DNA of 39,969 bases from Candidatus Hodarchaeota archaeon (GTDB taxonomy: Archaea; Asgardarchaeota; Lokiarchaeia; Sigyniarchaeales; SOKP01), in NCBI GenBank assembly GCA_048886685.1, contig JBHLKM010000024.1:1202-41170 (forward strand), given 5' to 3'. This document shows, piece after piece, positions 98 through 35,365 of this stretch. Position numbers and translations under genes: made by a program. Positions within the stretch are counted from its first letter, which is position 1; every line of letters begins with the position of its first letter. The notes beneath the pieces were generated by a model. The model searched no databases. It saw only the letters and a program-made list of their open reading frames with translations, and was not told where the DNA came from.

Positions 98-177
98 CCT
101 CCCTATATAAAGAAAAAATATATTCAATCTTGAGTTAAGACTTTTTTCTTTAAATATTTCTAAATGATCAAAATAAT

Positions 178-1344
178 ATGATACAACCTGAAAATATTTG
201 CGGAAAATGTATATTGCCTGATGGATTCTTAGGAGTTCATCTCGATGATCAAGGATTATGTGAGTTCTGCTCAGATCTTGATCATAAGAACATAAGTTGG
301 GCTCGAACCGAAATAAACCAAGAAAGAAGAGATGCTGCTCTTGAGGATTGGGATTCAGTTGTACGTCAAATGCAACGAGATCATGGGAACCAGATTTATG
401 ACTGTGTACTTGGATACTCTGGTGGAAAAGATTCTACTGCCTTACTTGATCATCTTGTAAACGATTTAAATCTCACTCCTTTAGCGGTTACCTCGGACAC
501 AGGATTCATGACTGATATTGCAAAAGGAAATATGAGAGATACATTAGAGAGAATCGAAGTAGATCATATCTTTATCGAAGACTCTTCGAAAACATTTATA
601 AAGCTCTACAAATGGCATTTTTTTCATCATGATTCAAATAAAACATTTTTAGCCAGACACATTTGCGACTATTGTTCTGATTTAATTCATAGCATTGTAG
701 TTAAAGAGGCGATGAAACATGGAATTAATTATGTATTATTCGGTTATTCTCCAGATCAAATCTTTCGATATTTCTATGAGATGCCACGCGACGAAGTTAT
801 TAAAGAGTGGAAGCCAGCATTGCTCGATGAACCTGTTTTTGAAGATTTTGACAGACAATGGTATCTAACTGATAAAGAAATTGAAAGCGAAAACATTCCC
901 AGAGTGCTTTTACCTTACCACGTAATCCCCTATAGAGAGCAAGACATCATTGAACTTGTAGAATCTAAAAATTTGATAAAGAAAGGACATGCTGACCCTC
1001 TCCTTACTAACTGTAATGTTGTTCATGCAGCAACCTTTTATGATTTCAATCGCTACGGAGGAATTTTATATGCTTATCAGTACGCTGAACTGGTACGCCA
1101 AAACCCAGAGGCAAGGAAGAAATGGCTCAGAATACTTAAGATATCAGCACCTCTAATTCTTGAGAATAAATTTAAACAGAGAGAAGTAAATCAATTTCTT
1201 GAAAAAATTGGAGTAACTCAAGAAGAAATGCTCGAACATATCAGGAGTCAATTAGCTCAAGATCCAAATAAATCTATAATTGAACGAAATATAGATATAT
1301 TTAGAAAGAAAAGAAGATCTAAACTGTCTATTCCTGTTCAATAA
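178..1344 (+). CDS. PP-loop (N-type ATP pyrophosphatase) protein, N-acetyl-sugar amidotransferase-like
   Basis: SGGKDS PP-loop motif in DCVLGYSGGKDS, N-terminal CxxC...CxxC and an internal CDYC. Confidence 0.75.
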   Translation: MIQPENICGKCILPDGFLGVHLDDQGLCEFCSDLDHKNISWARTEINQERRDAALEDWDSVVRQMQRDHGNQIYDCVLGYSGGKDSTALLDHLVNDLNLTPLAVTSDTGFMTDIAKGNMRDTLERIEVDHIFIEDSSKTFIKLYKWHFFHHDSNKTFLARHICDYCSDLIHSIVVKEAMKHGINYVLFGYSPDQIFRYFYEMPRDEVIKEWKPALLDEPVFEDFDRQWYLTDKEIESENIPRVLLPYHVIPYREQDIIELVESKNLIKKGHADPLLTNCNVVHAATFYDFNRYGGILYAYQYAELVRQNPEARKKWLRILKISAPLILENKFKQREVNQFLEKIGVTQEEMLEHIRSQLAQDPNKSIIERNIDIFRKKRRSKLSIPVQ

Positions 1345-1382
1345 TTTTTTTTTTATAAATTTCGTAATTAAAAGATGTTTTT

Positions 1383-1754
1383 TCAATCTCCCGTTGGTTT
1401 TATTGTAACTTTTTCCATTAGCAAAACGGATGTACGATTGGGAGCTCTTGTTCGATGCATTACACCCTTTGGTACAGTAAATCCTTGTTTTGGCTTCAAT
1501 TCGACTAATTTTTCTTCCAAATCAATTAGAAGTAATCCTTCAATGACATAGAAAAATTCGTCTTCTTTGTCATGCTTATGCCAATGGAATTCTCCTTCAA
1601 TAACTGCTAATCTAATTACAGAATCATTCACATTACAGAGGGATATATTCTGCCATTTTTTAGTACATTGTTTAATTAATTGTGTTATGTCAATTATCTC
1701 CAAGGGTTTATATTTTATTTCTAGATCAATTGAATATTTACTGTTGTTTTCCAT
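1383..1754 (-). CDS. Cupin-domain protein
   Basis: Cupin motif 1 GEFHWHKHDKEDEFFYVIEG and motif 2 GFTVPKGVMHRT. Confidence 0.9.
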   Translation of the reverse strand: MENNSKYSIDLEIKYKPLEIIDITQLIKQCTKKWQNISLCNVNDSVIRLAVIEGEFHWHKHDKEDEFFYVIEGLLLIDLEEKLVELKPKQGFTVPKGVMHRTRAPNRTSVLLMEKVTIKPTGD

Positions 1755-1899
1755 TATTCACTCTCCAAATTGTTTTTTATTGATAGACGAACTTTATCAA
1801 TTACTCATAGATGTTATATTTTCATATTATTTTTTTCTTTAAAAGATCCTCTAAGACTTTAGATTTTTTCTTTATATATGCATGATAAAATTATCAGTT

Positions 1900-3405
1900 A
1901 TGAAGCTTAAACTTTTATTTGCAGAAAATTATCTCGCAATGACGTCAAAAAACGTTGTCTTACGAGATCCTAGTAATTTTTTGGAATTCTTATACACAAA
2001 TTATCCGCAACATAAGCAATGGATTACCCCTGAAGTGTTCAAACAATATCAACCATGGCCAAAAGATTATATTTATACAGAAGGAGAAGATATGGCTTCA
2101 AATATTACAGGTTGTTTTATAAAAAGCAATTTACAAACACAAGTAGATATTATTGAAGGACGATGTACTGTAAAAAAATTAGCTTGCGCATTGAAGAAAA
2201 ATAAATATACACATGTAGCCTTTAGTGTGTTTTCTTCTGATTTTTCTGAGTTTATAAGATGTACGGAATATATTAGGCATCATTATCCCAAAATAAAGAT
2301 AATAGCGGGAAATATTGGAGCCTTATTCGAAGGAACTGATAAATATGTTGACTATGTCTGTCGGGAAAGAGGAGTACCATACTTGCGAAATCTGTTTGAT
2401 GAAGATCAAGGTAAACCCTTTAAATCAGCTTACAGTCCTTATGAATATGATGTCTGCTATAAGGATAACAAAATAAGACGATATAATTTGTTAGTTGTAA
2501 CCAAGATTGGATGTCCCCACCGGTGTGATTTTTGTAGTACTAATAAATACTTTAAGGGAAAACATTCAAAAGAGTTAGTTTCTCCCAATGAAGTACATGA
2601 TGCTATATTGGAACATCGTAGAAAACTAGGAAATAAAAATTTCAATATCCATATGGCAGAACCTACTGCCATCATCAATAAAAACTGGTGGTATGAACTT
2701 TTTGAGCTCTTTGAACAGGAAAAAGGAGATTATCCTGTAATTGCAGCAACTACGACCAATTCACTGAGAAATTTAGATTTTGAACGATTAAGTAATTCTG
2801 CTATGCGATTTGAAATGGTCTATATTGGAGTAGAAGATTTTAATAGAACATATAACAAAAATGACAGCATTGATATCCAAGAACTTATTGACATGCTTAT
2901 AGGGTATGGAATAGGTGTCTATACCTCTTATATTATTGGGTTTCCGCATCAAACTTTAGATGAGATCTGGGATGGAGTTAAGCAGTTTGCAGATTTACAT
3001 CCAACCTGGTGGGAAGTTCATAATCTAAAGGTCTATCCAGGAAGTCCATTCTGGAATAAGATAAAAAGGGATGATAGGTATGTTGATATCCCTCTTGATT
3101 TTCGGTGTATGCATGGTTTCCAGCAATTTAAAGATGAGAATTTTAGAATAGGTTTTGCAGATTTATGGCCATTGATGTATGAAATTCAGCGATATATTGA
3201 AGCAGCAAACGGACCAATAGTTACAAATCTATGCAAAGTATATAAAAACTTAATAAAAACCCATGATATTAACAATAAATTATTTAGACGTACTTTACAA
3301 TGGTATAAAGCGATTTCTAAGGAAATATTTCCTGTGTGGAAGCTTTATTTTGAGCCAAACACTTACCAAAAAGAAAATTATTTAGAAAAAAGTCAAATTG
3401 CTTAA
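1900..3405 (+). CDS. B12-binding-domain radical SAM protein
   Basis: CxxxCxxC motif (GCPHRCDFC), N-terminal B12-binding-like segment (KIIAGNIGA), and IGVED, IIGFP and YPGSP motifs. Start moved from 1882 to ATG 1900 to fit the promoter spacing. Confidence 0.8.
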   Translation: MKLKLLFAENYLAMTSKNVVLRDPSNFLEFLYTNYPQHKQWITPEVFKQYQPWPKDYIYTEGEDMASNITGCFIKSNLQTQVDIIEGRCTVKKLACALKKNKYTHVAFSVFSSDFSEFIRCTEYIRHHYPKIKIIAGNIGALFEGTDKYVDYVCRERGVPYLRNLFDEDQGKPFKSAYSPYEYDVCYKDNKIRRYNLLVVTKIGCPHRCDFCSTNKYFKGKHSKELVSPNEVHDAILEHRRKLGNKNFNIHMAEPTAIINKNWWYELFELFEQEKGDYPVIAATTTNSLRNLDFERLSNSAMRFEMVYIGVEDFNRTYNKNDSIDIQELIDMLIGYGIGVYTSYIIGFPHQTLDEIWDGVKQFADLHPTWWEVHNLKVYPGSPFWNKIKRDDRYVDIPLDFRCMHGFQQFKDENFRIGFADLWPLMYEIQRYIEAANGPIVTNLCKVYKNLIKTHDINNKLFRRTLQWYKAISKEIFPVWKLYFEPNTYQKENYLEKSQIA

Positions 3406-3486
3406 TTTTTTTTTTTAACCTTGAGAAGACGATTATAAATATTTAAAAAAAGTTATCTTAAATTATTTAAATTAAAAAAAAGGAAA

Positions 3487-8082: not shown

Positions 8083-8214
8083 TGTATTTTTTTATGAATA
8101 AACTCTCTCTTCTCACATTTTATTAGAAATTAAAGACTATTCTTCCATACATATTTAAATAAAAAAATAGTAAAATTTTTCCTTTATATAGGGGGCAAGT
8201 TTATAACATAAAGG

Positions 8215-8580
8215 TCAGATAGGAGAATCTTCTTCTAATTTTTTAAGAAGGTTATGAATTAATTTCCCTACTTTCTGAAGGAGTTCATTTTTTTCTTTTA
8301 GTTCGTTCTGAATTTGTGAGGGAATCTCTTTTTCAGCAAAATTGTCAATTTGCTGTTGGTATGATATTTGTTTATGATAATAGGGAAAAATTTCTATAAT
8401 TTTACTCTTGAAATTTTCCCGATTCTCAATTATTGCCGTTCTTAGTTGTTTTGGATCTACTCTTCCCATCGCCACATTACGAATTAACTCCTTTAATAAT
8501 TCGAGTTCTTTTACGTCAAAAAAGATCTTTTCAATCATGTCGGATAAATTATGCTTTTGGCCATGTAGTTTATTGTTCAT
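8215..8580 (-). CDS. Hypothetical helical/coiled-coil protein, last gene of the membrane operon
   Basis: ATG at 8580 is preceded by GAGGAG and overlaps the 3' end of the 1261-aa gene. Confidence 0.6.
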   Translation of the reverse strand: MNNKLHGQKHNLSDMIEKIFFDVKELELLKELIRNVAMGRVDPKQLRTAIIENRENFKSKIIEIFPYYHKQISYQQQIDNFAEKEIPSQIQNELKEKNELLQKVGKLIHNLLKKLEEDSPI

Positions 8581-11500
8581 TTGTCTCCTCCTCACTTTTT
8601 CTATATAAATATAGGTGCAATTTATTAAAAAACGTCTCCAAGTATTTATAGAGTTGTTTTGCCTTGATTTTAATATTATTATAGTTAAAATTAATAGTCT
8701 GAAATTGCTCTAAATACTGATTTAACTCTTCTTTGGTAAACGGCATATTACAAGTTTCGCTTAGATGCTCAATGAAATCATGTAGGTGCTTAATAGTTAC
8801 TCTCTCATCAGAGTTATAATAATGCCTATAAATCTCCGTTAGAAATCTTTGTATAAACTCATGTTCAAGCTTAAGTGCATTTTTAAATTCATTTTTTTTT
8901 AAGTATAAATGGATAGTAAACACTTCATAGTTAAAGTCACTAAACACTCGCATGAGTGCTTTCTTTACATTACCCTCCTCAATTATATACTTACGTGGTG
9001 CTTGGAGATGGTCTTCTACAAAAGGAAGAGAATTTGGAGACTCTTCCTCAATAGCTTCCATCGTATAGGCTTGGTTCGATTCATACTCATCTTCCAATGC
9101 TTTCTTATATTGAGGTCCAACAGAAAAAGAAGTTCTCAACGACTCCGAACCACTTGCCGTTTTGGGATGATTTTCCACTATATAGCCTTGTTTTATCAAG
9201 ATTGAAAAGATCTCATCTCTACATCTTTTTATATCAGATTTATCTTTATAATATCGCGAAGCTTTTGGATATAATATAGTTATCAGTTCTTTTTTCAGTT
9301 TTTTTTCATAAAGATTACCAATTTGATCTAAGGTACCAATTGATTCTAGGAATTTCTTTACTTCGGGTATGTAACCACCATAGATTCCTAAATCTTTTTC
9401 GAATATCGTTTTCTTTATTTGCTCTAATATTAATTTTTCTGTATCTCGTAAATTGTATCCTTGCCTGTCCATATATGCGATAATCTCTTCATTTTTCATA
9501 AGCGGCTGGTCTTTTACGTCTTTCCACTCAAAACACACAGGAAACGATTGATAGATATCTGATCTTTTCACAAGTGCTTCTTCACTTTTCATGTTTTCTA
9601 AGTATTGAGTTTGATATGCCTCCTTTCTACTACGTGAGTATATCCCTGTCCCGTGCATATCTCGAAGGTTCATCCTTTTCATTAACGCTCCGATATCATT
9701 CTTATCAGTGGTTCTGAAGCTGACGATATTTTCAAAATACTTTACAAAATTGGGGTGGAGATAGTACATCTGATTTGCCCCACATATTAAACCAAAGCCT
9801 TTATCGATGAGGGGATCTAAGAATTTATATACTTTCCCATAGTCGTTATACTGTTCAATCACTTTACTTTTAAAAAACACATCGATATGTGGGATAAAGA
9901 TATATTTTGCTACGTATCCTGAGTGTCGCTTGAGAAAATGGATAATTTTAGAAATAATAATAAATGTAAAAAACACAAGTTTGGGGAGATCTACGATGAT
10001 GGAAAGATCGATAATCACTGTTTTATTGGTTTTAATAAAATCTTGAAAGGTTATAACATCATGACCAGTTTTTAGTGTAGAGATATGCAAGTAGTCCAAG
10101 TCTTGAGTGGTCAAATCGCGAAATAATGCCAATAATGTGTCGCTTGCAGGATTTTCCCATTTATTTTGATTGATTAATTGGACGTTAAACGATTCCATAT
10201 CTAACTCTGGATTTTTATTAATTGCATTTCTCATAATATCTATGGCATATTTTTGTTTCTGAAATGCCAATGCATAAGCATCAAAGATATAATCCAAAAC
10301 CTCTAAATTGTCGGGATCATAAGGAATATCCGACTTTAGTGGATCTAAACTAAAGGCGGTCCCAAGTTTAAAATAAAGAAACTCATTTTCAAAGGGAGTT
10401 CCCTCAAAGTGTTTCAGTATTTTCGACCAAGATCCTCGAAAATCAAAAACCAGTGAAGGTTTGTTTTTTTCAACTAGCTGTGAGACAATCTTCATGGCAA
10501 GAAGTTCTCTGCTGGAATAGGTTCCATTCACAATAAGTAAATTGGTAAGTTGCTCTTCAGTGAAACCAAAGGGGATCTCTTTTTCGAGCACTTCAGTATT
10601 AATAGTATCCCCAATTACAATGCTATTTTTCAATTTTAAGGGGGTGTTAAATTCAGAAGCGATTCGTGTGGTAATTCCTTTTTTTAACTCATCTACTATT
10701 TCTATAAACGAGATGAGTAATTTTCCTTGAATTATAAGATAATTAAGATGAGTTCCGATAAATGTAAAATCTTTATTTTTTACAACACTAGAAATGACAC
10801 CAGAGAGTAACACTTGTCGTCTGAGTTGTACTACATCGCAATTAAAGAAGTGAGTATTAAACGCATTATACAATTTTAGGGATTTTATGTGTAACTGCTC
10901 TTCAAGATCTTCAATTATTTCCCCTGAAAGCGATTCAATATAGGTGAACTCACAAACAGAAAGCGTGAGAATCGTCTGCCATATCCCAGAACGCATCCCT
11001 AGCCAATTAATTCCATCTAATTTTGTCCGTACTCTCCAATCTGAAACCAATAGGTTCCGAAATGTCTTAAGGTTTAAATAATCAAGATATTTTTTATAAA
11101 ACACTTCAAACGATACAGGAGAATTTATGCAGGTATACCCAAAATATATTTTTTGATTCATAATTCCCCTGAGAAACTTATCAAATCGAACATAGGGGGA
11201 AGGATGTATTAGCGCAAGATTAAACATTTTGGTGCCTACCAATAATGTATTGTCAATATAGGCAAATAAAGAATCAGAAATCCCTCGATAACGGAAAAAC
11301 ACAATATCTTTAAAGGGATTTATTGCTATAAAATGACTACTCTTCATGATCGAAGTATGTAAGGTAAGGAATAATAGTTCTCGCCACCATAAGTAGATTA
11401 AAAAACCTAAGAGCGTGATGGTGATTAAGGAAGTATAGAGGAGTGAAAGTCCTAAATTCGATAAAAGAATACTCGAACTCAATAATAGAATAGAGGAAAA

Positions 11501-12355
11501 CAGTGCTTTTATCAAAACATCAGGCGTAATCCAAAGTTTTCTTTGTTCTCCTCCTTCAATTTCTTTTGGAATCTTAAAAAAATAAGTTCGTAATGCATTT
11601 ATTAAATTTCGTCCAGAGAGAGGTACAATCTGGAAGTGATGAAAGTTGCCCGCAAAATTGCTTTGAAGGACATTTCCTAAGGTAACCATTTTATCTCTCA
11701 ATAATCGAAATTTAGCACGACTTAAAGTTCCTTTTACAGAGCAATGGATACAGAAATAAATATTCGTTTGGATAGATTCTCCCACTTCGGTTTGTTCTTT
11801 TTTAAAAAGAGGCGTTTGAACTATTTGGTATGTGAAGCTTACCATGTTTTTATAACCGCTGAGTGCTTTTATGAATAAATCTATCGGAGCATGAATATTT
11901 TCAGGAATAACCTTAATTCTAAAAATAGCTAGCCCAGTATGCATTAAATCTTTTTTATTGGAAATATACAAAGCGGAAGAGGTTTCACCATCTAGAAGAA
12001 ATAACAAATCCCGAAAAGGATTTACTAGTTTTGCTTTTTTGAAGGAAAAAGACGTCAAGCTACGCAGAAGATAGAAGTGATCTCGAAAGACAAAAAGAAA
12101 GAGAGTACTAATAACAATACCTGCACCACCCATAATAGATAGATCAAATGTAATGAGATATGCAGCACTCATAAAAAATCCCACAAGTACTACAAGAAAT
12201 ATACTCCGTGCAATGATTATCAAATTATTAATATGTTTAAAGGAGGGATTAATTTTCCAGATACGCGGAACCTCTTTTTTTGAACTTTTCTCATCTATTT
12301 CAATTTGCCTTATTCTTTGCTCTCTTGGGGAAGATCCTTTTCCAAAACTTACCAT
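8570..12355 (-). CDS. Membrane-anchored HerA/VirB4-superfamily protein with degenerate Walker motifs
   Basis: The C-terminal half follows HerA/VirB4 motif order: LLIVNGTYSSRE at the Walker A position, LVFDFRGSW, VIIDLS, YIFIPHID at the Walker B position, GFGLICGANQ and IVSFR. The N-terminal half is two [2TM + soluble domain] repeats. Confidence 0.7.
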   Translation of the reverse strand: MVSFGKGSSPREQRIRQIEIDEKSSKKEVPRIWKINPSFKHINNLIIIARSIFLVVLVGFFMSAAYLITFDLSIMGGAGIVISTLFLFVFRDHFYLLRSLTSFSFKKAKLVNPFRDLLFLLDGETSSALYISNKKDLMHTGLAIFRIKVIPENIHAPIDLFIKALSGYKNMVSFTYQIVQTPLFKKEQTEVGESIQTNIYFCIHCSVKGTLSRAKFRLLRDKMVTLGNVLQSNFAGNFHHFQIVPLSGRNLINALRTYFFKIPKEIEGGEQRKLWITPDVLIKALFSSILLLSSSILLSNLGLSLLYTSLITITLLGFLIYLWWRELLFLTLHTSIMKSSHFIAINPFKDIVFFRYRGISDSLFAYIDNTLLVGTKMFNLALIHPSPYVRFDKFLRGIMNQKIYFGYTCINSPVSFEVFYKKYLDYLNLKTFRNLLVSDWRVRTKLDGINWLGMRSGIWQTILTLSVCEFTYIESLSGEIIEDLEEQLHIKSLKLYNAFNTHFFNCDVVQLRRQVLLSGVISSVVKNKDFTFIGTHLNYLIIQGKLLISFIEIVDELKKGITTRIASEFNTPLKLKNSIVIGDTINTEVLEKEIPFGFTEEQLTNLLIVNGTYSSRELLAMKIVSQLVEKNKPSLVFDFRGSWSKILKHFEGTPFENEFLYFKLGTAFSLDPLKSDIPYDPDNLEVLDYIFDAYALAFQKQKYAIDIMRNAINKNPELDMESFNVQLINQNKWENPASDTLLALFRDLTTQDLDYLHISTLKTGHDVITFQDFIKTNKTVIIDLSIIVDLPKLVFFTFIIISKIIHFLKRHSGYVAKYIFIPHIDVFFKSKVIEQYNDYGKVYKFLDPLIDKGFGLICGANQMYYLHPNFVKYFENIVSFRTTDKNDIGALMKRMNLRDMHGTGIYSRSRKEAYQTQYLENMKSEEALVKRSDIYQSFPVCFEWKDVKDQPLMKNEEIIAYMDRQGYNLRDTEKLILEQIKKTIFEKDLGIYGGYIPEVKKFLESIGTLDQIGNLYEKKLKKELITILYPKASRYYKDKSDIKRCRDEIFSILIKQGYIVENHPKTASGSESLRTSFSVGPQYKKALEDEYESNQAYTMEAIEEESPNSLPFVEDHLQAPRKYIIEEGNVKKALMRVFSDFNYEVFTIHLYLKKNEFKNALKLEHEFIQRFLTEIYRHYYNSDERVTIKHLHDFIEHLSETCNMPFTKEELNQYLEQFQTINFNYNNIKIKAKQLYKYLETFFNKLHLYLYRKSEEETNEQ

Positions 12356-12358
12356 TTC

Positions 12359-13228
12359 TTATATCATTCCCTTGTTATGCAATTTCTTATATGAAAAAAT
12401 AATAATTATGACGATCCCGAAGAATACGAGAAGTGTATTGCTCAACACCGGCATTGTATTCGGATATAAAAACATCTCAACGACGAGGAGCCCACTCAAA
12501 CAGAGAAAGAGAAAGGTCATCCCCCAGAGGAAATATTTTATAAAAAAATTTTTCACGTGACCAAAATCCATATTATCTTTTAATGTACCTTGAAAAATTA
12601 TCCTGTGTTCTTTACTTTCTTTCAGACTGTTTTTGATGTTCTTTAGGAAAATAACCCTTTCTATATTGGTTTGATCAAGGGTTCTATTTAGATTATTTTG
12701 AAGGATTCTTTCTTGTTCCCTAATTTTTTGTAAAAGTATTGGCTTGAATTTACTAGAGCTATCTTTTTTTTGTTTCATTCCCCTCGCACCTATATTAAGC
12801 ATATATAAGTTAGATGATTCAAAATATTCCTCTCCTGTCATTCCTTTATATAAATTGGGCACTTCAATTTTCCTCAGCTCATAATATACAAAGATCAATT
12901 TTTTTATATGGGTATAAGGGATTTCACCGCGATTCCGCAAGAAAAGTAATTCAACTTCTTTTATAGTTACGATATTTTCTTCTTTAAAAATCTTGATTTG
13001 AAGGTTTGTCTCAAATATTTCATTTACTACGACCATATATTCAAATAAAAGCTCTTGACTCTTTTCTCTATTGCGAGGTCTCATTCCTAATTTTAATGCA
13101 ATCTCGTCTACAAGATTACTGGTGGAGATAAATCCAACTACTGCTAGCTTTTTATAATTGCCGGTTTCCTTACACGCCTGAATTAATCTCTTTAGTTTTA
13201 GATCAAAGATTTGGTAATTCACAGTCAT
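12359..13228 (-). CDS. Hypothetical protein with two C-terminal TM helices
   Basis: Soluble helical N-terminal region and two hydrophobic helices at the C-terminus. ATGA overlap with the upstream gene. Confidence 0.7.
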   Translation of the reverse strand: MTVNYQIFDLKLKRLIQACKETGNYKKLAVVGFISTSNLVDEIALKLGMRPRNREKSQELLFEYMVVVNEIFETNLQIKIFKEENIVTIKEVELLFLRNRGEIPYTHIKKLIFVYYELRKIEVPNLYKGMTGEEYFESSNLYMLNIGARGMKQKKDSSSKFKPILLQKIREQERILQNNLNRTLDQTNIERVIFLKNIKNSLKESKEHRIIFQGTLKDNMDFGHVKNFFIKYFLWGMTFLFLCLSGLLVVEMFLYPNTMPVLSNTLLVFFGIVIIIIFSYKKLHNKGMI

Positions 13229-13899
13229 AGATAATCCTCTTTTTTAATTTTTAGTTCCTCTTCTGCAATATATTCATCTATGTCAACTGGTTCTTGAATC
13301 TCCTGGATAATTTTTTCTATTTGGATCTCAGGGAGGTGATGACTTCTTTCGAGAGCTGTGGCGGTGAGAATATAATTCAGCGAATAAGGAAAAATAAGAA
13401 CAAATCCAAAGAGTTGTAGAAAATACCCTACACCCCCAGAATAATGGATGGTAATATTCAATTCATTATCAATCTGAGTTACCACAGGATAATACAGCTT
13501 GTTAGGATATAGATAGATACTTGGGAAAAGCACAACGTAGAAAAAGGTGAATGCGAGTAAAGACACGAATATATATGTAAAATATCCTGTATTGGTAGAA
13601 TTTTCGGTTTCCATAGCACCTTGAATGACAACGACTCCTACAGACAATACAAGTGTAATGATGAATAAGACATTAATATAGAATGGCACACCAAGATTTA
13701 AAGGTCTATAATCCTCATTTATGGATACTCCTGAGGGAAAATCTGTGGTCCATTCAGAAAATAAGTTATAACTCCAAGAAGCGATGAGTTCATTATTAAT
13801 GTCCACGACTTGAAATGAATACCATTCTAAGAATAATGAGACAAACAGCACAATTAACCCTGCTAACAGCATAAGTTTAGGATATGATAATGTTCTCAT
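13225..13899 (-). CDS. Four-TM membrane protein
   Basis: Four hydrophobic segments, LEWY after TM1 with a large first loop, and an acidic tail. 4-nt gap to the upstream gene. Confidence 0.7.
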   Translation of the reverse strand: MRTLSYPKLMLLAGLIVLFVSLFLEWYSFQVVDINNELIASWSYNLFSEWTTDFPSGVSINEDYRPLNLGVPFYINVLFIITLVLSVGVVVIQGAMETENSTNTGYFTYIFVSLLAFTFFYVVLFPSIYLYPNKLYYPVVTQIDNELNITIHYSGGVGYFLQLFGFVLIFPYSLNYILTATALERSHHLPEIQIEKIIQEIQEPVDIDEYIAEEELKIKKEDYL

Positions 13900-13903
13900 C
13901 TGA

Positions 13904-19339: not shown

Positions 19340-19382
19340 ATTTTTTTCTTTTAAATAATTTTGGCTCTATTTGCATTTTGAG

Positions 19383-19640: not shown

Positions 19641-19972
19641 TAGATTAAAAGAGAAAAGTTGGTTTTAGCGTAGGATAGTCACAGGGGATACTTAATAAAA
19701 ACAATAAAAACAGTGTGTAATATCAGTTTTTTCAACTTTTCTCATTTAAAGGTAGTGAATTATTATAATAAAATAATATAATATCTTCATAATCGTGAAA
19801 CGATTGTATTGTAAGGTTAAGTCACCTGAATATATATTACAATCGTAAATTATTAAATTTATAAAGAAAAAAAAGAGAAAATTAGATTTTAATTTACACT
19901 TCTAATTTAGTAAGTGACGCTCTCGGCTTTAGCTAATGTATCTTTGTATTTAATGATGGCGTTGAACTGTCC

Positions 19973-21010: not shown

Positions 21011-23100
21011 AACCTCCTCCCTGTTGGGCTTTCTAATACACTTTTTATGATAAAATAGAGTTCTTCTTCATCTTCTATAGGAATAAACTGAAAATTATAC
21101 TCTTGGGTTAATTCTTGAATCCTATTTTTTAACTTCCGTTTTTCTCCAGGTGATTGCTCTTCAAAGTCAACAAAATCAAAAATGATGAAAAATAACTCAC
21201 AACTCTCGGAAAATTCTTGAATTTCTGGAATTAAATCATCATCAGCAAAGTTCGGATCATATACCTGAATTAATACTCGATTATACAAGACAATATGAAG
21301 GTCTGTATCAACAATACTAAATTCAATGCCATCTTTCTGTAGCTTTTGTCGAATGCCGAATTTCATGGGGAGAAGTCTACTTATCTTTACATCAGATATA
21401 TCTTCTTCCTCTTCTATGACATTTTCTTGAAAGGACGATTCTATAAATGAAGTTAAATTTGCTTGTTGATTTTTTGTTTTACCCTGATTAGGGGATATTG
21501 AGGTTGATTTCGAAATCGATTTGATAGCTTTAGGTTCCTGAGGTCTTTTGAGGTTCACATTCATTTTTTTAAGCTTACTTAATGCTATCTTCAGATAAAT
21601 CTCATCATGGGTACCTTTACAGTATAAAATGATAACTTTTCCTTCTCGATGTCGAGCAGTTCTGCCTTTTCTCTGGATTAAGCGGATCTCAGACGCTACG
21701 ACATCATAGAAAACTACTAAATCGCATTCTGTGATGTCTAATCCTTCTTCTCCTACGTTTGTCGATACCAGCACATTATACACACCTTTCTTGAACTGAT
21801 CTAAGGTTTCAATCTGAACTTTTTGCGACATGCCTTTATCCCCGTTAGATTTGGTGGCTTGACCTACGAATCTCACAGGTTTTATAATATCTATTCTTTC
21901 AAGCTGTTCCATTATATTGTATAAGGAGTCTCGTAATTTTACAAAAACAAGTATTCGTGATTCTGGATTTTGGGATAATTCATCTAATAGCACTTTTTGT
22001 AGCACGTAATATTTAGGATGAATGAGGTGTTCAGGGGTATAATCTTGGTTCTTTTTCAATTCAATAAAAACACGGCGGATCCTTGAGTCAGATGCCAAAA
22101 TTTTTACAGCCTTCGAGCTACTTTTCTTTTTTGCATCAGAATAGAGCTTCTCCAAATAGTATAAAAGAACATCGAGCCCTTGCTGTTCAACAAGTTCGAG
22201 TATATGATAAAGGATTAACGCTTGGGCATTGATCGATAAAGCACTATATAATCCCTTTTTATCCATGTTTTTCTGTAACATACTAACCAACTCTCTATTT
22301 AGTTTTAGTAAATCTTTTCGAAAGACTTTAGTATGGAGTACCTCAGATTGCACATCTAAAAAACTAAGCTGCAAAAGATAATGCAGTCGCTCTTCCAGTA
22401 CAACAATTACTGCTGAATATACTTCTTGCATTAATTCGGTAAGGTTCACTCCGATTTTATAGATGCTCATATGCTTGAGGTAAGTCTTCACATCACTGTC
22501 TTTTCTGGTTCTGATATGAATATTATCTAAGGGAATATGAAGGTTTTCACATAACATTGCTATTTTCTTTTTCGATGCCCCCGGTGACGCAGTAAGACCA
22601 AGAGTAACTCCATCTGGATTTTGTTCTTCATACTCATCAGCAATCATCGTATAAGCATAATCACCCGAAGCATGATGCGCCTCGTCATATATAATAAGAG
22701 CAGTATGTTCTAAAGTGTATCTCCTATTCACTAAGTCATTTCGTAGCGTCTGAGGGGTATAAAACAATATTTGATTTTCTTCATATAATTGCACTCGTTT
22801 TTCAGGAAGTACTTTACCTGTGAGTACTACAAATTTTTCTTGAGGGATTGGTAGAAAATTTGAAAAGGTATCGTAATGTTGATTTATTAAAGGTCGTGTT
22901 GGAGCTAACACAATTATCTTGCTTCGTTGGGGAAAAAATTGTAATGTCTTCTTTGCCGTGAGTACAGCGATGATCGTTTTTCCAAGTCCAGTAGGTAAGA
23001 CGACTAAGGAATTCTTATTCACACATTTCTCAGCTATCTCTACTTGATACTTCCGAAATTCTAATTTTCCAGAGTTTGCGACTTGATTATTCTTAGACAT
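21007..23100 (-). CDS. hef: Hef/FANCM-like SF2 helicase with a degenerate ERCC4 nuclease domain
   Basis: RKYQ Q-motif, LPTGLGKT, APTRPL, TPQT, DEAHHA, LTASPG, FVGQ, STNVGEEGLDI and IQRKGRTAR. The C-terminal domain lacks GD/ERK. Start placed at ATG 23100, 1 nt after the upstream stop. Confidence 0.9.
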   Translation of the reverse strand: MSKNNQVANSGKLEFRKYQVEIAEKCVNKNSLVVLPTGLGKTIIAVLTAKKTLQFFPQRSKIIVLAPTRPLINQHYDTFSNFLPIPQEKFVVLTGKVLPEKRVQLYEENQILFYTPQTLRNDLVNRRYTLEHTALIIYDEAHHASGDYAYTMIADEYEEQNPDGVTLGLTASPGASKKKIAMLCENLHIPLDNIHIRTRKDSDVKTYLKHMSIYKIGVNLTELMQEVYSAVIVVLEERLHYLLQLSFLDVQSEVLHTKVFRKDLLKLNRELVSMLQKNMDKKGLYSALSINAQALILYHILELVEQQGLDVLLYYLEKLYSDAKKKSSSKAVKILASDSRIRRVFIELKKNQDYTPEHLIHPKYYVLQKVLLDELSQNPESRILVFVKLRDSLYNIMEQLERIDIIKPVRFVGQATKSNGDKGMSQKVQIETLDQFKKGVYNVLVSTNVGEEGLDITECDLVVFYDVVASEIRLIQRKGRTARHREGKVIILYCKGTHDEIYLKIALSKLKKMNVNLKRPQEPKAIKSISKSTSISPNQGKTKNQQANLTSFIESSFQENVIEEEEDISDVKISRLLPMKFGIRQKLQKDGIEFSIVDTDLHIVLYNRVLIQVYDPNFADDDLIPEIQEFSESCELFFIIFDFVDFEEQSPGEKRKLKNRIQELTQEYNFQFIPIEDEEELYFIIKSVLESPTGRRL

Positions 23101-23101
23101 C

Positions 23102-23704
23102 TCACTCACAGGCATCAACTAATATTTGGGAATCCTCTATATCTATTTTTTCGAAATTTTTATTACTTTTTTTATAAGAAAGTAGTAATTCTCCTAGTTT
23201 TAATCCAAATTCAGAAGGATAGATTAATCCGTTCTTCTGCTCTTGAAAACAATAGGGATAATAATCACAGAGCTCTTTCACATTTTTTAGCAAATCTATG
23301 CCATTAGTTTGTACATCAAACCCTTTTCCTCGTTTTACGTGTTTAAAATAGTAAATTATATCGTTGAAATGATTAATATGGGATTGAGGCATTCTAATTT
23401 TACACGGTACTGTACTTAATTTTTTACTTTTTTCTATAACTAAATATACTTGATTATTGTCGATTTTCTTTCTTAGTATATAGTGTGTAAAGGTGTTTTC
23501 ATACAGTTCTTGGAAAGTGAGTAATAAAGAGATTATTTCTTCTACTTCCGATGGGTTTAGCCTAAGATAATTTGCGAATTTACTGAAATTTAATTTTTTA
23601 TCATAATTTTCCGCAAATTTCCTTAATACGTCTAATATCTGATGCATTACCTGTAATAAATCTTTATTACGCGAAATAACATCTGAACTGCTCTGTAAAA
23701 CCAT
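23102..23704 (-). CDS. Hypothetical protein, possibly tandem winged-helix
   Basis: HTH-like LNFSKFANYLRLNPSEVEEIISLL and wing-like GLIYPSEFGLKL. Coupled to hef, with a T6C-TATA-like motif at 23725-23741. Confidence 0.6.
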   Translation of the reverse strand: MVLQSSSDVISRNKDLLQVMHQILDVLRKFAENYDKKLNFSKFANYLRLNPSEVEEIISLLLTFQELYENTFTHYILRKKIDNNQVYLVIEKSKKLSTVPCKIRMPQSHINHFNDIIYYFKHVKRGKGFDVQTNGIDLLKNVKELCDYYPYCFQEQKNGLIYPSEFGLKLGELLLSYKKSNKNFEKIDIEDSQILVDACE

Positions 23705-23748
23705 TATAAAGCTAAAGAATTAGGTAAATAAAAAGAAAAAATTTAGGA

Positions 23749-26352: not shown

Positions 26353-26470
26353 AAAACTCACGTTTAATTGTTGCCTTCTATCAAATCCTACCAAGCATAT
26401 TTAAAGAAAAAAAGAAAAAAAAAGAGAAAAAATTCACAGCCATATAATAAGGTCACACTTAAGATCATAA

Positions 26471-27703
26471 TCAAGTTGTAACAGGGGGTCCTTTTGAGGG
26501 AAAGAATTCCTCAAGAGCTAACTTAAACCACACTCCACTCGCTTTAGAACTTTTCTTAGATTTAACCTTGCTGGCAAAATGATTATACACTTCAAGATAA
26601 ATGTAGGTGATCGCTCCATTTTGATCAAAACTCTCAAAAAGATAATGATCATTGGACGGATTAAACACTTGAAGTGCATCTCCTAATTGGACCTGAATAA
26701 TGTCATTTTCCTCTTTTACATCTTCCTCTTTAACTAACCCTATCTCAGGTTCCTCATCTTCTATCAAGCCGATTTTTACAAGAAACTTCTCTAATAAATC
26801 GGCAGAGCGGACTAACGTTGAGAATCCCGGAATCCGATATCGATCAAAAATCCTTTTCTTAACCTGAAGCTGGATGGTGCTCATCCTAATGTCGAGTAAT
26901 TCACAAATTGAACTTATTCTCACTTCTTCTTTATACTCACAGAGGGTCGTAATAGACGCACACAATCCTGCTATAACATTATCTGTGGTGTTTTTAATAC
27001 CTTCCCAGAGACGATATAAAACCTTTTTTGAGAGAAAATAAAATGGCATCTCAAGTTCAAAATGGTTGGTGATCTCCAATAATTTCTGGGATATATATTT
27101 TTGCCGATTCCTTACCATATAATTAGGATAGTATGCTCGAACTTCTCTATAGAAATTGTTAAATTCCTTTTTCGTTAATTCCGTATGTTTAAATATATCT
27201 GCATTTGTTACCGAAATGGTATCAAGTTTGAATCGGAAATATAAGATTATTGCAACAAGCTTCTCTACATTCCTATATTTTGATCCTGATTGTAATCTCC
27301 CATATGTTTCTTTAAAATTTACCAACGCCATTTCTTTAAGGGAGCCATAATCTGCCAAATCTAAACTACTAAGGATTCTTGAAATCTCTCTACGTGCTTT
27401 AGCATAAACTATCTTTTCATTATCATTTATCTTGTTATACTTATTCAATCGTTTTAAGCTTCTTGAATGAGGGGAGATTAACCGTTCCCTTTTATTTCCT
27501 ATTTGTGTACTTCCTAATCTTCGTGCATATTGTAGCACATCTGCTTTATATGGTTGATCATATTGAAGTTTCCTTAGTGTTTGAACAATCCCACATGCTC
27601 TACACACATATCCTTCGACAGTCTCGGCAATATCATCGGAACCACACAAATCACATTCGAGATTCGTATAATCTAATTTTATTGAGGTTTTGTATATCGT
27701 CAT
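26471..27703 (-). CDS. tfb: Divergent transcription initiation factor IIB (TFB) paralogue
   Basis: Zn ribbon CDLCGSDDI...YVCRACGIV, GSTQIG and LKRLNKYN linker segments, two cyclin-like repeats and an extra C-terminal domain. The GPEWRAF B-reader is absent. Confidence 0.75.
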   Translation of the reverse strand: MTIYKTSIKLDYTNLECDLCGSDDIAETVEGYVCRACGIVQTLRKLQYDQPYKADVLQYARRLGSTQIGNKRERLISPHSRSLKRLNKYNKINDNEKIVYAKARREISRILSSLDLADYGSLKEMALVNFKETYGRLQSGSKYRNVEKLVAIILYFRFKLDTISVTNADIFKHTELTKKEFNNFYREVRAYYPNYMVRNRQKYISQKLLEITNHFELEMPFYFLSKKVLYRLWEGIKNTTDNVIAGLCASITTLCEYKEEVRISSICELLDIRMSTIQLQVKKRIFDRYRIPGFSTLVRSADLLEKFLVKIGLIEDEEPEIGLVKEEDVKEENDIIQVQLGDALQVFNPSNDHYLFESFDQNGAITYIYLEVYNHFASKVKSKKSSKASGVWFKLALEEFFPSKGPPVTT

Positions 27704-28051
27704 TTTTTTTGATCACTATTTTTTTATTTTCACTAAGAAATTTTTGTGACGGAGTTTGTTTTTTAAAGCTTACGGTTGGGATCGAAATTGGTGAGGAGAG
27801 TGCGTCTATCCCTCGATCATAAATTGACAAAAAGTATAAAAACCCCACTTTTTTCATTTTAACTCGCAGTGACATTTTTGTGCATATAAAATCCATCATG
27901 AAGAACAAATCTCTATCAAGGAGTAGTGCTGTTTTAGTCCTAAGTTCGCCCTCACACAAGAATCACACTATGTGGCAGAAGAGCTACACTTTGCAGATCA
28001 TGAAGAAAAATGATGAAGTTCCAAATTTTATTATAAAATATGCTTCCAAAA

Positions 28052-28066
28052 TTTTTTCTTTAAATA
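28052..28066 (+). promoter_or_regulatory. T6C-TATA promoter of the peptidase-radB operon
   Basis: TTTTTTCTTTAAATA, with the C 30 nt upstream of ATG 28088. Confidence 0.6.
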
Positions 28067-29212: not shown

Positions 29213-29215
29213 TTT

Positions 29216-30158: not shown

Positions 30159-30173
30159 TTTTTTCTTTATATA
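30159..30173 (+). promoter_or_regulatory. T6C-TATA promoter of radA
   Basis: TTTTTTCTTTATATA, followed by a leader with a GGTGA SD before ATG 30228. Confidence 0.55.
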
Positions 30174-33321: not shown

Positions 33322-33364
33322 TATTTAAAGGAAAAAGTTGCGATTCGAAATTTTTCTTTAAATA
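33322..33364. promoter_or_regulatory. Back-to-back divergent T5C-TATA promoters
   Basis: TTTTTCCTTTAAATA on the minus strand (33322-33336) and TTTTTCTTTAAATA on the plus strand (33351-33364), 32 and 33 nt from their ATGs. Confidence 0.65.
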
Positions 33365-34734: not shown

Positions 34735-34942
34735 CTATAAATTTTTAGTAATTAATCACGAAAGAAGCTCGTTCTATTTAAAGGAAAAACGTTGACACCA
34801 AGTAGACGAATTTTTATTTAAATAGGCCTAGCATACATCATATGATATGTTTGAAATCAAATTTCCAGTAACAAATTTCTTTATATGTGTAGTCAACTTA
34901 TCTATTGTTAGTATATACATTTTTATAGGTTTTATAGGACCT

Positions 34943-35188
34943 ATGGCGAAAAAGTATTATTGTCCAAGATGTAAAAATCCAAAAGTATTTGAATATCCAG
35001 ACTCAATAGAGTGTCCTGATTGCTTATTGGAGTTTGATAAAAAACATATTGGGGTTATTCCCGATGATGAGATATTAGCGTTTTCAGAGATGGACAGCTT
35101 TTTTGATTCGTTCGAAGAGATAAAAGACCCTGAAAAAGCTAAAAAATTTTTTGATTCGATAATGGAAGACCTGGAAGATGAAAATTAA
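34943..35188 (+). CDS. Small Zn-ribbon protein with an acidic tail
   Basis: YCPRCKNPKVFEYPDSIECPDCLLEF. ATG 34943 preferred over 34847. Confidence 0.7.
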   Translation: MAKKYYCPRCKNPKVFEYPDSIECPDCLLEFDKKHIGVIPDDEILAFSEMDSFFDSFEEIKDPEKAKKFFDSIMEDLEDEN

Positions 35189-35242
35189 ATCTTGTTTTTT
35201 GATTGTTCAAATTTTTGTTTAAATAAGTTCAGCTAATCTATG

Positions 35243-35273
35243 ATTCACCTTTAATTATAATAGAAAGGTGAAT
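35243..35273. repeat. 10-bp perfect inverted repeat with a palindromic core
   Basis: ATTCACCTTT (35243-35252) and AAAGGTGAAT (35264-35273) flank ATTATAAT. Confidence 0.6.
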
Positions 35274-35350
35274 TATGAAGCTTAAGATTTTTACGTTACT
35301 AACCCGACTATACCATATGATAAAAGGATGGTAGCTATTCCCCAATATCT

Positions 35351-35365
35351 TTTTTTCTTTATTAA
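35351..35365 (+). promoter_or_regulatory. T6C-TATA promoter of fen
   Basis: TTTTTTCTTTATTAA, with the C 31 nt upstream of ATG 35388. Confidence 0.55.

Follow-up and report, generated by a model that had tools for sequence, protein, structure and literature searches.

A conserved gene set in a Loki-type Asgard archaeon appears to be transcribed from a core promoter of its own. This putative Lokiarchaeial promoter consists of A(-7)-T6-C followed by TTTAWATA, where TTTAWATA would be the ordinary TATA box for TBP and the T-run with its C would replace the usual A-rich BRE. The likely reader is the tenth, very divergent TFB of the genome (TFB*), which is encoded within the same 40-kb island as the gene set, rather than one of its nine ordinary paralogues. 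We assign a probability of about 0.7 to a sigma-like regulon in which the T-run promoters are read by this private TFB*. If true, TFB* would act much as a bacterial alternative sigma factor does; no published description of such a T-run/private-TFB system was found in the literature.

The T-run element and its genes

The window, that is, the whole stretch of DNA analysed, comprises 39,969 nt (contig JBHLKM010000024.1, positions 1,202-41,170 of the forward strand, assembly GCA_048886685.1) from Candidatus Hodarchaeota archaeon (Archaea; Asgardarchaeota; Lokiarchaeia; Sigyniarchaeales; SOKP01). The initial annotation had proposed a shared T-run motif before 11 starts (178, 1900, 15880, 16183, 19076, 19383, 23704, 28088, 33298, 33389 and 35388). 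In all 11, T5-7, C and TTT(A/T)WAWW follow one another and the in-frame ATG comes 30-36 nt after the C; the more distant copies before radA, 26352 and 34734 were also recovered. Start 33298 had been chosen partly by its spacing; the orthologue alignment begins at the same codon, as it does for 16183, 35388 and 30228. The features are as follows.

104..117, minus: T-run promoter TTTTTCTTTATATA, facing a gene cut off by the window start; ORF start 60 nt downstream
143..156, plus: T-run promoter of a 388-aa WbuX/PP-loop-like gene; C to ATG (178) 30 nt
1832-1845: weaker second copy before the B12/radical-SAM gene
1865..1878, plus: T-run promoter of the B12/radical-SAM gene; C to ATG (1900) 30 nt
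5021-5671: wHTH protein gene, within the island
8177..8190, plus: orphan T-run promoter, no downstream ORF; antisense to the membrane operon at its end
8215..15880, minus: membrane operon of five genes (658-aa HhH, 224-aa, 289-aa, 1261-aa membrane and 126-aa proteins)
15908..15921, minus: T-run promoter of the membrane operon; C to ATG (15880) 36 nt
16143..16156, plus: T-run promoter of a Hel308-like helicase (16183-18708), divergent to 15908; spacing 35 nt
19036..19049, plus: T-run promoter of an 87-aa gene (19076); spacing 35 nt
19341..19357, plus: T-run promoter of a 67-aa gene (19383); spacing 35 nt
19858..19871, minus: orphan T-run promoter, no downstream ORF
20486..23704, minus: Hef operon (200-aa protein; Hef/FANCM-like helicase, 703 aa, NF010337 Hef, E 1e-166; DUF1922 zinc-ribbon protein)
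23727..23741, minus: T-run promoter of the Hef operon; C to ATG (23704) 31 nt
26398..26411, minus: T-run promoter of an 867-aa prenyltransferase-like gene; ATG (26352) 54 nt downstream
28053..28066, plus: T-run promoter of operon 28088-29908 (257-aa and 110-aa proteins, RadB-like ATPase); spacing 30 nt
30160..30173, plus: T-run promoter of a RadA paralogue (30228-31460), whose leader has a GGTGAT SD; spacing 63 nt
33322..33335, minus: T-run promoter of a 105-aa/341-aa operon; C to ATG (33298) 32 nt
33351..33364, plus: T-run promoter of a 73-aa membrane hairpin protein and an ICMT-like gene, back to back with 33322; C to ATG (33389) 33 nt
34775..34788, minus: T-run promoter of a 123-aa gene; ATG (34734) 49 nt downstream
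34811..34824, plus: variant T-run promoter (A for C) of a 113-aa gene; ATG (34847) 31 nt downstream
35212-35225, plus: orphan T-run copy, no downstream ORF
35352..35365, plus: T-run promoter of a FEN1/XPG paralogue (35388-36482); spacing 31 nt
37201..37214, plus: variant T-run promoter (A for C) of a conserved 182-aa gene and an Arf-like GTPase; ATG (37262) 56 nt downstream

That some copies have no gene had been anticipated, and three lack a downstream ORF; one of these (8177-8190) has a counterpart at the matching syntenic spot in genomes G092 and G119. The 1261-aa protein of the membrane operon has a VirB4/HerA-like domain. The nearest named Atlas clusters are all of the HerA/DUF87/TrwB/CedB type, and a low-confidence model matched VirB4 (4ag5, Z 13.9), HerA (12.0) and TrwB (11.1).

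The distances from C to ATG fall into two groups, 30-37 and 50-67 nt. At a spacing of 30 nt the TATA lies at -29..-22 relative to the ATG and the T-tract occupies the BRE position. From these spacings about half of the T-run units look leaderless, fewer than the 'mostly leaderless' set that had been put forward.

A logo was built from 77 sites of six genomes with position 0 left free; the run is 5-6 long in 80% of the sites, 68% have C at position 0 and 62% have A at -7, and the T-run is invariably one base away from the TATA. Across at least five genera the motif is kept in the orthologous promoters of RadA, FEN1, Hel308, p105, p73 and p182 while the flanks have diverged, and the RadA-paralogue promoter is retained in eight of the nine other loci compared. 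These constraints bear on a structural reading, in which the run has no sequence-specific reader and serves as an oligo-T terminator or insulator, or as a rigid poly(dA:dT) tract that excludes histones, which Asgard archaea possess. Such a role would fit the tandem pairs, where T-runs start 2-8 nt past the previous stop codon (after 19339 and on the 26352 side); the T7 of promoter 19341, 2 nt after a stop, may thus also terminate the preceding gene. It would also fit the T-runs of host spacers (including TTTTTCTT), which are enriched between convergent but not divergent genes and mark terminators. However, neither a terminator nor a nucleosome-excluding tract requires the observed length, C, A or constant offset. 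Furthermore, the motif does stand on both sides of divergent pairs, as the initial annotation had noted; there are four (104/143, 15908/16143, 33322/33351 and 34775/34811), giving eight sites in spacers where no gene ends, and host promoters of the same genome lack the run. We regard a purely structural T-run as quite improbable.

Restriction of the element to the island

The motif is far more frequent than composition predicts. With at most one mismatch, TTTTTCTTTAWAWA has 23 matches in the window, against 1.95 ± 1.35 (maximum 5) in 100 dinucleotide-preserving shuffles. The host assembly is 4.4 Mb and the 41-kb island contig makes up 0.9% of the genome; 10 of the 33 exact copies in the assembly lie on this contig, a density about 25 times that of the rest, and nowhere else do exact copies stand at promoter distance from genes. 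A relaxed motif (T5, a non-T base, TTTWWAWW) was followed at 27-37 nt by an ATG-ORF of 60 aa or more in 9 of 16 copies on the contig and 9 of 279 elsewhere (Fisher odds ratio 38.6, p = 1e-8). An ORF starts 30-36 nt from 8/14 of the high-scoring PWM matches on the contig and from 0/45 of those elsewhere; even within the wider range of 24-80 nt, only 7/45 of the latter have one. The T-run motif is not a general promoter of this lineage.

Host promoters differ in their flanks: their TATA boxes lack an upstream T-tract or C and are preceded by a weak A signal at -3, that is, a weak A-rich BRE, and the genes have Shine-Dalgarno leaders with no fixed TATA-to-ATG distance. The restriction of the motif to the contig, together with these differing flanks and host T-runs, upholds the proposal of two promoter classes, of which the T-rich one marks a single gene set. 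The genes at 20118 and 31853, which had been offered as the purine-BRE contrast, are members of a multi-copy small-gene family whose leaders carry a host-type Shine-Dalgarno, and are probably later inserts.

The contig could also be foreign, i.e. a mis-binned piece of another organism, a virus or a plasmid, with the motif as the general promoter of that entity. The 41-kb contig stands alone, contamination of the assembly is estimated at 8.4%, and the RadA and FEN1 of the contig are just 36-41% identical to the host copies. Yet the island is collinear in G119 (998-kb contig), in G047 (388-kb contig) and on a 249-kb JGI contig, and in relatives it lies inside closed genomes and contigs of 388, 793 and 998 kb, where the flanking DNA is free of the motif. 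In 200-kb stretches of G119 and G047, motif-plus-ORF sites cluster solely at the island. Marker identity declines with taxonomic distance, tetranucleotide composition is unremarkable, no viral relatives of the contig were found, and its PHROG matches were two marginal ones (E > 1e-3), neither meaningful. Because the collinear island sits within 0.4-1-Mb contigs of relatives, the contig is chromosomal; a foreign origin is already contradicted by this synteny and is very unlikely indeed. The closed genome G092 has its island broken up into at least three dispersed pieces (0.21, 0.49 and 2.64 Mb), each retaining the motif, which thus travels with the genes and not with location.

TFB* as the candidate reader

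The two features of the TFB* locus are given below.

26471..27703, minus: gene of TFB* (410 aa), a divergent TFB paralogue
27746..27769, minus: promoter region of TFB*; T-run absent, conserved TTTAAAAA box followed by CAAACTCCGTC

TFB* scores below the Pfam TFIIB threshold, but profile and fold comparison identify it as a divergent TFB. A 4-Cys Zn ribbon and two cyclin repeats are present, and some 120 aa at the C-terminus form an additional beta-rich domain; the B-reader region, modelled with low confidence, is unrecognisable. Alignment with 16 canonical TFBs gave a probability of 97.9% (hhalign, E 4.7e-13, 263 columns), all Foldseek matches to rank 41 were TFIIB/TFB/Brf, and a PDB profile search returned TFIIB/TFB only. 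The sequence has diverged far (24% identity).

The canonical archaeal BRE is purine-rich and is read by the C-terminal HTH of TFB. As reference we used PDB 1D3U, the TBP-TFBc-BRE/TATA complex of Pyrococcus woesei. The island promoters resemble a canonical core promoter in having an 8-bp TTTAWATA at a TATA-like distance from the start codon and a 6-7-bp element directly upstream, at the BRE position, and TFB* shares the TFB core fold (TM 0.78, rmsd 3.0 to 1D3U_B). They differ in carrying T6-C where purines stand in the BRE. The recognition helix of TFB* is altered (IRMSTIQLQVKK): VTEVT(L/V)R(S/N)R, invariant in 16 host-type TFBs and the same in 1D3U (VTEVTVRNR), is replaced by I(R/K)MSTIQxQ, which is invariant in 31 TFB* homologues. 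TFB* probably reads the T-run element, although it could be otherwise employed and a different protein read the run.

Exact motifs cluster beside TFB* copies in other genomes. In G001, nine lie within ~33 kb beside TFB*; in G149, 13 of 37 lie on the three TFB*-bearing contigs; and in G040, with four full and two partial copies, the motif is found 0.2-2.6 kb from five of the six and the motif-to-control ratio is the highest (74/22). The one clean negative genome, G094 (only 81% complete), has no detected TFB* and no enrichment (13/11). In family f2 (G105) the helix reads ITASTVYSHIK and the promoter is a variant, T8-10-GC-TTTTATAAAC; TTTTTTGCTTTTATAAA occurs twice in the closed 4.3-Mb genome, both times inside its island. 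This co-variation of helix and motif comes from a single distant lineage. Over 52 genus genomes the correlation of the whole-genome exact 14-mer count with TFB* copy number was weak (Spearman 0.33, p = 0.015), and that of the excess over control gave p = 0.13; a Mann-Whitney test gave p = 0.087. Genomes without detected TFB* still had a motif-to-control ratio of 1.5, for which gaps in the MAGs or an imperfect control could account.

The TFB* gene has no T-run in its promoter and is apparently not driven by TFB* itself. The block TTTAAAAA plus CAAACTCCGTC is kept in four orthologues/paralogues, and the leader contains an SD-like TAGTGATC (27711-27718). We propose that a signal would lead the housekeeping machinery to make TFB* from this conserved TATA and operator-like block with its SD-bearing leader. 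TFB* and TBP would then recruit RNA polymerase to ~20 T-run promoters, and the spare recombination genes (RadA, RadB-like, Hel308, Hef and FEN1 paralogues), the VirB4/HerA-like membrane operon and the small membrane proteins would be switched on as one unit. In tandem pairs the T-run may additionally end the upstream transcript.

Comparison with known systems

As in bacterial alternative (ECF-type) sigma systems, TFB* would be a dedicated initiation factor that is encoded beside its targets, recognises a private element and switches the set on as a unit. Sigma factors belong to another protein family and act in another polymerase context, TFB* is not apparently self-driving and, unlike in ECF-type systems, no anti-factor partner for TFB* was identified. 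Haloarchaea likewise have several general-factor paralogues per genome, TFBs and TBPs, and the idea of partly separate regulons applies there too; the haloarchaeal TFBs are close paralogues and their BRE/TATA motifs similar, whereas here one paralogue has diverged far and is paired with a qualitatively different, pyrimidine-type element that is confined to one gene set. TFB motif variants have been discussed (PMC3542263).

The T-run and C could also be bound by a separate regulator, either an activator offsetting the missing BRE or a repressor, for instance a wHTH or Orc1-type protein, with initiation by ordinary TFBs and another role for TFB*. Archaeal promoters with poor BREs that depend on a recruiting factor exist, and a wHTH protein is encoded in the island. 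In the DNA-damage response of Sulfolobales, TFB3, Orc1-2 and ANTTTC control the Ced importer of DNA and the Ups pili (PMC6101594, PMC6101591, PMC6061795, PMC5817253); ANTTTC, bound by Orc1-2, is a T-rich hexamer ending in C near the core promoter (PMC6061795, PMC5817253). The likeness extends to a TFB paralogue for a DNA transfer/recombination regulon, predicted here from the VirB4/HerA/CedB-like membrane protein and the RadA, Hel308, Hef and FEN1 paralogues, and to the phyletic co-occurrence of factor and gene set. However, TFB3 is a truncated factor without the HTH that acts beside TFB1, whereas TFB* has both cyclin repeats and a rewired HTH. The Orc1-2 element lies at variable positions, whereas the island element abuts the TATA in fixed register at the site of the TFB HTH, which leaves no space for TFB and a second protein. 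The G119 and G047 islands lack the wHTH gene. Among DNA-binding factors TFB* alone accompanies the gene set, and the residues altered in it are those of the BRE-reading helix. We regard a separate regulator as unlikely.

T-run promoters in the window and the host genome

The element that the initial annotation had described upstream of 11 genes was analyzed in the source assembly (4.42 Mb in 47 contigs, 30.9% G+C; estimated completeness 100%, contamination 8.4%); the window spans positions 1202–41170 of its contig C24. All 11 starts are preceded by T5–7, a C and TTT(A/T)WAWW, with a C-to-ATG distance of 30–36 nt, and the farther copies were present as well, at 63 nt for radA, 54 nt for 26352 and 49 nt for 34734. 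The pattern TTTTTCTTTAWAWA, with at most one mismatch, had 23 matches in the window, well above the number in dinucleotide-preserving shuffles (1.95±1.35, maximum 5). The motif stands back to back across four divergent spacers, and three copies in the window have no downstream ORF.

Pooling of 77 sites from six genomes yielded the logo A(−7) T6 C TTTAWATA, a predicted core promoter that we call the T-run promoter (position 0 is the C). The T-run is 5–6 nt long in 80% of these sites, and C occupies position 0, which was left free in the search pattern, in 68%. Positions −5 to −1 are 97–100% T, a value that is partly built in (−4 to −1 were fixed by the pattern); in a free scan, T amounted to 65–76% at the six positions preceding the C, and C to 53% directly before the TATA box. 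The purine/A-rich BRE that adjoins the TATA box in canonical archaeal promoters is missing at T-run promoters, and the canonical TATA trait is retained, with TTTAWATA 29–35 nt before the ATG at leaderless-type sites (start site predicted). The C-to-ATG spacing of the pooled sites is bimodal, with one group at 30–37 nt, having a sharp mode at exactly 30, and a second at 50–67 nt. In the first group, where the TATA box lies at −29 to −22 from the ATG, transcripts are expected to have little or no leader; the second group would give leadered transcripts, some with a Shine-Dalgarno (SD) sequence, for example radA. The proposal of a mostly leaderless class would accordingly apply to about half of the transcription units. 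The 30-nt spacing also fixes start-codon annotation, at 1900 rather than 1882 and at 33298 rather than 33319.

It had to be considered that the motif is simply the general promoter of this lineage, and the comparison with the rest of the assembly shows that it is not. The assembly contains 33 exact copies, of which 10 are on this contig, that is, on 0.9% of the DNA. With a weight matrix derived from the contig's own sites, 12 of 14 strong matches on the contig had an ORF start 24–80 nt downstream (8 of these at 30–36 nt), and off the contig 7 of 45 had one (none at 30–36 nt). A relaxed pattern combined with an ORF gave 9/16 on the contig versus 9/279 elsewhere (Fisher odds ratio 38.6, p = 1e-8). 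Host genes carry a G-rich SD signal at −13 to −7 and have no fixed TATA-to-ATG distance; upstream of their TTTAWAWA boxes the composition is that of the background, save for a weak A at −3. The interpretation as two promoter classes therefore holds. The genes at 20118 and 31853, which had been set apart by purine-rich upstream sequence, stay outside the T-run class, now as members of a family of small genes that occurs in several copies and has host-type SD leaders. Copies of these small genes, 20193–20441 (+) and 31524–31853 (−), were seen on contigs C27 (three in tandem), C34, C16 and C2, and the two look like later insertions into the conserved gene set of the window (hereafter the island). 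The host has two ordinary RadA genes; for one of them (345 aa, C18:59427, −) the variant T5-A-TTTTTATA lies 35 nt before the ATG, perhaps by chance, perhaps through some connection with the regulon.

T-runs could alternatively mark transcript ends. Host divergent spacers are enriched in TATATA and GGTGAT, and host convergent spacers in T-runs, including TTTTTCTT, which are therefore terminator marks there. Oligo-T terminators consist of five or more consecutive T in the sense strand shortly after a stop codon; in tandem pairs the T-run may double as a terminator, as it starts 2–8 nt past the previous stop codon, e.g. after 19339. Termination is a second role at most, since eight T-runs sit in divergent spacers in which no gene ends.

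Orphan T-run promoters were observed at 8177–8190 (+), 19858–19871 (−) and 35212–35225 (+). Downstream of 19866 there is an inverted repeat, ACGATTGTA...TACAATCGT, and no ORF. The site at 8177–8190 occupies the same syntenic spot in three genomes (G092:C1:213442 and G119:C1:219887 in the relatives); it lies between a 419-aa gene and the end of the membrane operon, is followed by no ORF and reads antisense into the last gene of the operon, so that it could drive an antisense or small RNA.

A divergent TFB paralogue and its recognition helix

The island encodes a divergent 410-aa TFB paralogue, TFB* (26471–27703, −). The host genome has nine ordinary TFB genes and two TBP genes, none of which is on this contig. 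A genome-wide search with PF00382 returned the nine other TFBs and missed TFB*; no Pfam family was assigned to it at E≤1e-3, its PF00382 score staying below threshold. BLASTP aligned the zinc ribbon and first cyclin repeat of TFB* with those of a host TFB at 24% identity. The four ribbon cysteines, C17, C20, C34 and C37, match the TFB ribbon and do not vary among 31 homologues; PF08271 was found in some of the homologues. A profile of the TFB* alignment retrieved TFIIB/TFB chains only from the PDB, with weak scores (E 0.02–0.8). Profile-profile comparison (hhalign) with 16 canonical Lokiarchaeial TFBs yielded a probability of 97.9% and an E-value of 4.7e-13 over 263 columns, which run from the ribbon through both cyclin repeats. 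The AlphaFold model (pLDDT 72 overall, 80–93 in the core) matched only TFIIB/TFB/Brf in Foldseek, down to rank 41; the best superposition was with 1D3U_B (P. woesei TFBc in the TBP-TFB-BRE/TATA complex; TM 0.78, rmsd 3.0 Å). On the basis of the ribbon, profile and fold matches, TFB* is a full-length TFB core, followed by an extra beta-rich C-terminal domain. Residues 43–68, corresponding to the B-reader/B-linker region, are unlike the canonical RRAYT block and were modelled at pLDDT below 50.

The recognition helix of TFB* is IRMSTIQLQVKK and departs from the canonical VTEVT(L/V)R(S/N)R. Within IRMSTIQxQVKK, residues M274, S275, Q278 and Q280 are invariant in the 31 homologues; in the canonical VTEVTLRSRxKE of 16 host-type TFBs, the T, E, V, T, R and R are invariant, and this helix equals that of the solved P. 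woesei complex 1D3U, VTEVTVRNRYKE. Judged from the alignments, both versions are under purifying selection. They differ at the BRE-facing positions, which we take to contact bases, as in TFIIB/TFB structures. The helix varies by lineage: MSTIQxQ in g1 and g6, MSTI(H/Q)xQ in g4, MSTVNYQ in g3 and ASTVYSH in family f2. An f2 genome, G105, holds a distant version of the island (identities: Hel308 35%, RadA 62%, FEN1 38%, the 182-aa protein p182 40%, TFB* 24%) with the promoter variant T8-10-GC-TTTTATAAAC; in this closed 4.3-Mb genome TTTTTTGCTTTTATAAA occurs only twice, and both copies are in the island. On the basis of this one lineage, co-variation between the helix and the promoter is suggested.

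Two other candidates for the reader were considered and rejected. An ordinary TFB on contig C3 had appeared to be lacking in G094, an island-negative genome; its gene belongs to the core, being 90–98% identical in 47/52 genomes of the genus and present also in genomes in which island markers were not found. The winged-helix (wHTH) protein of the island (5021–5671) does not qualify as universal regulator, its gene block (C24:2546–8023) being missing from the islands of G119 and G047.

Conservation of the island and linkage of TFB* to the motif

A foreign replicon or a mis-binned contig was first suspected because the contig carries extra RadA and FEN1 proteins that are 36–41% identical to the host copies. 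This was rejected on the synteny in large chromosomal contigs and closed genomes. The RadA paralogue was found once per genome in 82/149 Lokiarchaeia species genomes, and its identity drops with taxonomic distance (75–90% within the genus, 58–76% within the family, 55–64% in the sister family); in relatives it resides within contigs of 388, 793 and 998 kb. The island is collinear in G119 and G047, and within 200-kb stretches of these genomes sites with motif plus ORF cluster solely in the island (~171–225 kb and 279–320 kb). A 249-kb metagenome contig has the same gene order and the same promoters. The tetranucleotide composition of the contig is ordinary, and no viral relatives of it were found; PHROG gave only two marginal matches (E above 1e-3), PADLOC only generic helicase matches, and Rfam and tRNA scans of the window nothing.

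The island is not always contiguous. In closed G092, of the same genus, at least three fragments of it lie apart (at 0.21, 0.49 and 2.64 Mb), each with T-run promoters at its genes; besides its main island, G119 has a partial paralogous one on a different contig, also with the motif. The regions upstream of the orthologues of RadA, FEN1, Hel308, p105 and p73 (105- and 73-aa proteins) and p182 in ten genomes from at least five genera have diverged nearly fully; the T-run, the next base and the TATA box are retained. As compared here, the predicted promoter tracks genes, not genomic place.

The RadA marker was not found in a third of good genomes, by which the island might be accessory or optional. 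This was rejected, as p182 was detected in many of the 'RadA-negative' genomes, closed G092 among them, and absence calls are therefore unreliable. Matches to the island RadA (30228–31460) end at residue 261–264, at ~80% identity, in a dozen relatives (G096, G075, G048, G097, G145 and others) with open frames of ~290 aa; the stop near residue 262 points to a gene that is either split or interrupted by an insert (mini-intron or intein) in those lineages.

In other genomes, exact motifs cluster near copies of TFB*. Four full and two partial TFB* copies are present in G040, a genome of the genus (contigs C22, C23, C36, C56, C54 and C64); the exact motif lies within 0.2–2.6 kb of 5/6, and the motif-to-control ratio, 74/22, is the highest seen. 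None of the three island markers used was found in G040, and FEN1 is represented solely by the ordinary host-type copy; TFB* with predicted T-run promoters would therefore control other gene sets there. Nine exact motifs are found within ~33 kb around TFB* in G001, and 13/37 motifs of G149 lie on three TFB*-bearing contigs. In G094 (81% complete) TFB* was not found, and the motif is not enriched (13/11). The idea that the whole-genome motif count rises with TFB* copy number throughout the genus was dropped as weak or not significant: in 52 genomes the 14-mer count correlated with TFB* copy number with a Spearman coefficient of 0.33 (p = 0.015), and the excess over control gave p = 0.13, the whole-genome count being crude, with a high background and many MAGs lacking part of the island. 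Only the local clustering of TFB* and motif is strong.

Proposed circuit, gene content and known systems

The most likely mechanism, to which we assign a probability of roughly 0.7, is a private TFB that reads a pyrimidine-type BRE. TFB* itself has no T-run promoter. Its upstream region (385–500 nt) contains conserved blocks common to four orthologues and paralogues.

Sequence elements upstream of TFB* (window coordinates).
27746–27769 (−): TTTAAAAA box, then CAAACTCCGTC; conserved block
27843–27857 (−): ATGAAAAAAGTGGGG; conserved block in the upstream region 27704–28087
Just before the TFB* ATG: SD-like TAGTGATC

The TTTAAAAA-CAAACTCCGTC and ATGAAAAAAGTGGGG blocks are common to the orthologues and a G119 paralogue, and the region may serve as an operator or a structured leader through which the switch is controlled. 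With conserved blocks and an SD and without a T-run, this upstream region agrees with a cascade: the ordinary machinery, controlled by some regulator, would make TFB*, and TFB* would then open the island.

The predicted regulon comprises recombination/repair paralogues (Hel308-like, Hef-like [NF010337, 1e-166], RadA, a RadB-like ATPase, FEN1/XPG and a 658-aa HhH protein), all additional to host copies elsewhere in the genome. It also includes the five-gene membrane operon (8215–15880, −), a prenyltransferase-like protein, an ICMT-like methyltransferase, an Arf-like GTPase and many small unknown proteins. The 1261-aa protein of the membrane operon (8570–12355, −) had no Pfam, PADLOC or PDB sequence-profile match. 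By language-model features its nearest named Atlas clusters are HerA/DUF87/TrwB, including a CedB cluster (0.89–0.92), and by fold (VIA) it resembles VirB4 (Z 13.9), HerA (12.0) and TrwB (11.1) in a low-confidence model (pLDDT 46.7), with a C-terminal HEPN-like helical bundle (Z 8.6). Four orthologues have NGxxSSRE at the Walker A position, so that the protein is probably an inactive ATPase.

The usual picture of transcription in archaea and eukaryotes is that of a single general TBP/TFB(TFIIB) machinery acting on a single kind of core promoter, with regulation by added factors. In the literature searched, no description was found of an Asgard promoter class, a T-rich BRE or such a factor. The nearest functional analogue is the DNA-damage response of Sulfolobales. 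Its TFB paralogue, TFB3, switches on Ups pili as well as the DNA importer Ced, with which it co-occurs (PMC6101594, PMC6101591), and the T-rich hexamer ANTTTC is bound there by Orc1-2 (PMC6061795, PMC5817253). TFB3 is truncated, lacks the HTH and acts with TFB1 (PMC6101594), whereas TFB* retains both cyclin repeats and an HTH-like helix pair, with the HTH altered. The DNA elements differ too: the motif here is A-T6-C, with T and not A five positions before the C, so that only NTTTC is common, and it replaces the BRE, whereas the Sulfolobales element stands beside the core promoter. The Sulfolobales targets include a Ced-type importer (CedB, a VirB4/HerA-like ATPase); a possible counterpart here is the 1261-aa protein, by its likeness to the CedB cluster and its low-confidence model.

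If true, the proposed mechanism would mean that the lineage closest to eukaryotes switches between promoter classes by exchanging a basal factor, as bacteria do with sigma factors. TFB* and TFB offer a ready test of DNA reading by the HTH, since one cell has two invariant helix variants and two classes of promoter. The spare genes for recombination and membrane proteins are flagged as a putatively co-regulated set, with DNA damage, DNA exchange or a cell-cycle state as possible trigger.

A bolder reading, which we consider doubtful, joins these points: TFB*, reading a pyrimidine-type BRE of inverted polarity, would be a genuine equivalent, in archaea, of alternative sigma factors and control a sex-like state of DNA exchange, its recognition code having co-evolved with the promoters across an order. 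Such a programme would comprise the VirB4/CedB-like membrane machine, small pilin-like proteins and the RadA, RadB, Hel308, Hef and FEN1 paralogues, and the code would pair helix Q..Q with T6-C and helix Y..H with T8-10-GC.

The prenyltransferase alpha-alpha-toroid (23749–26352, −), the ICMT/PEMT-type methyltransferase (33663–34328, +) and the Arf-like GTPase (37845–38492, +) fall in the same predicted regulon, a set that is reminiscent of eukaryotic CaaX prenylation and small-GTPase processing.
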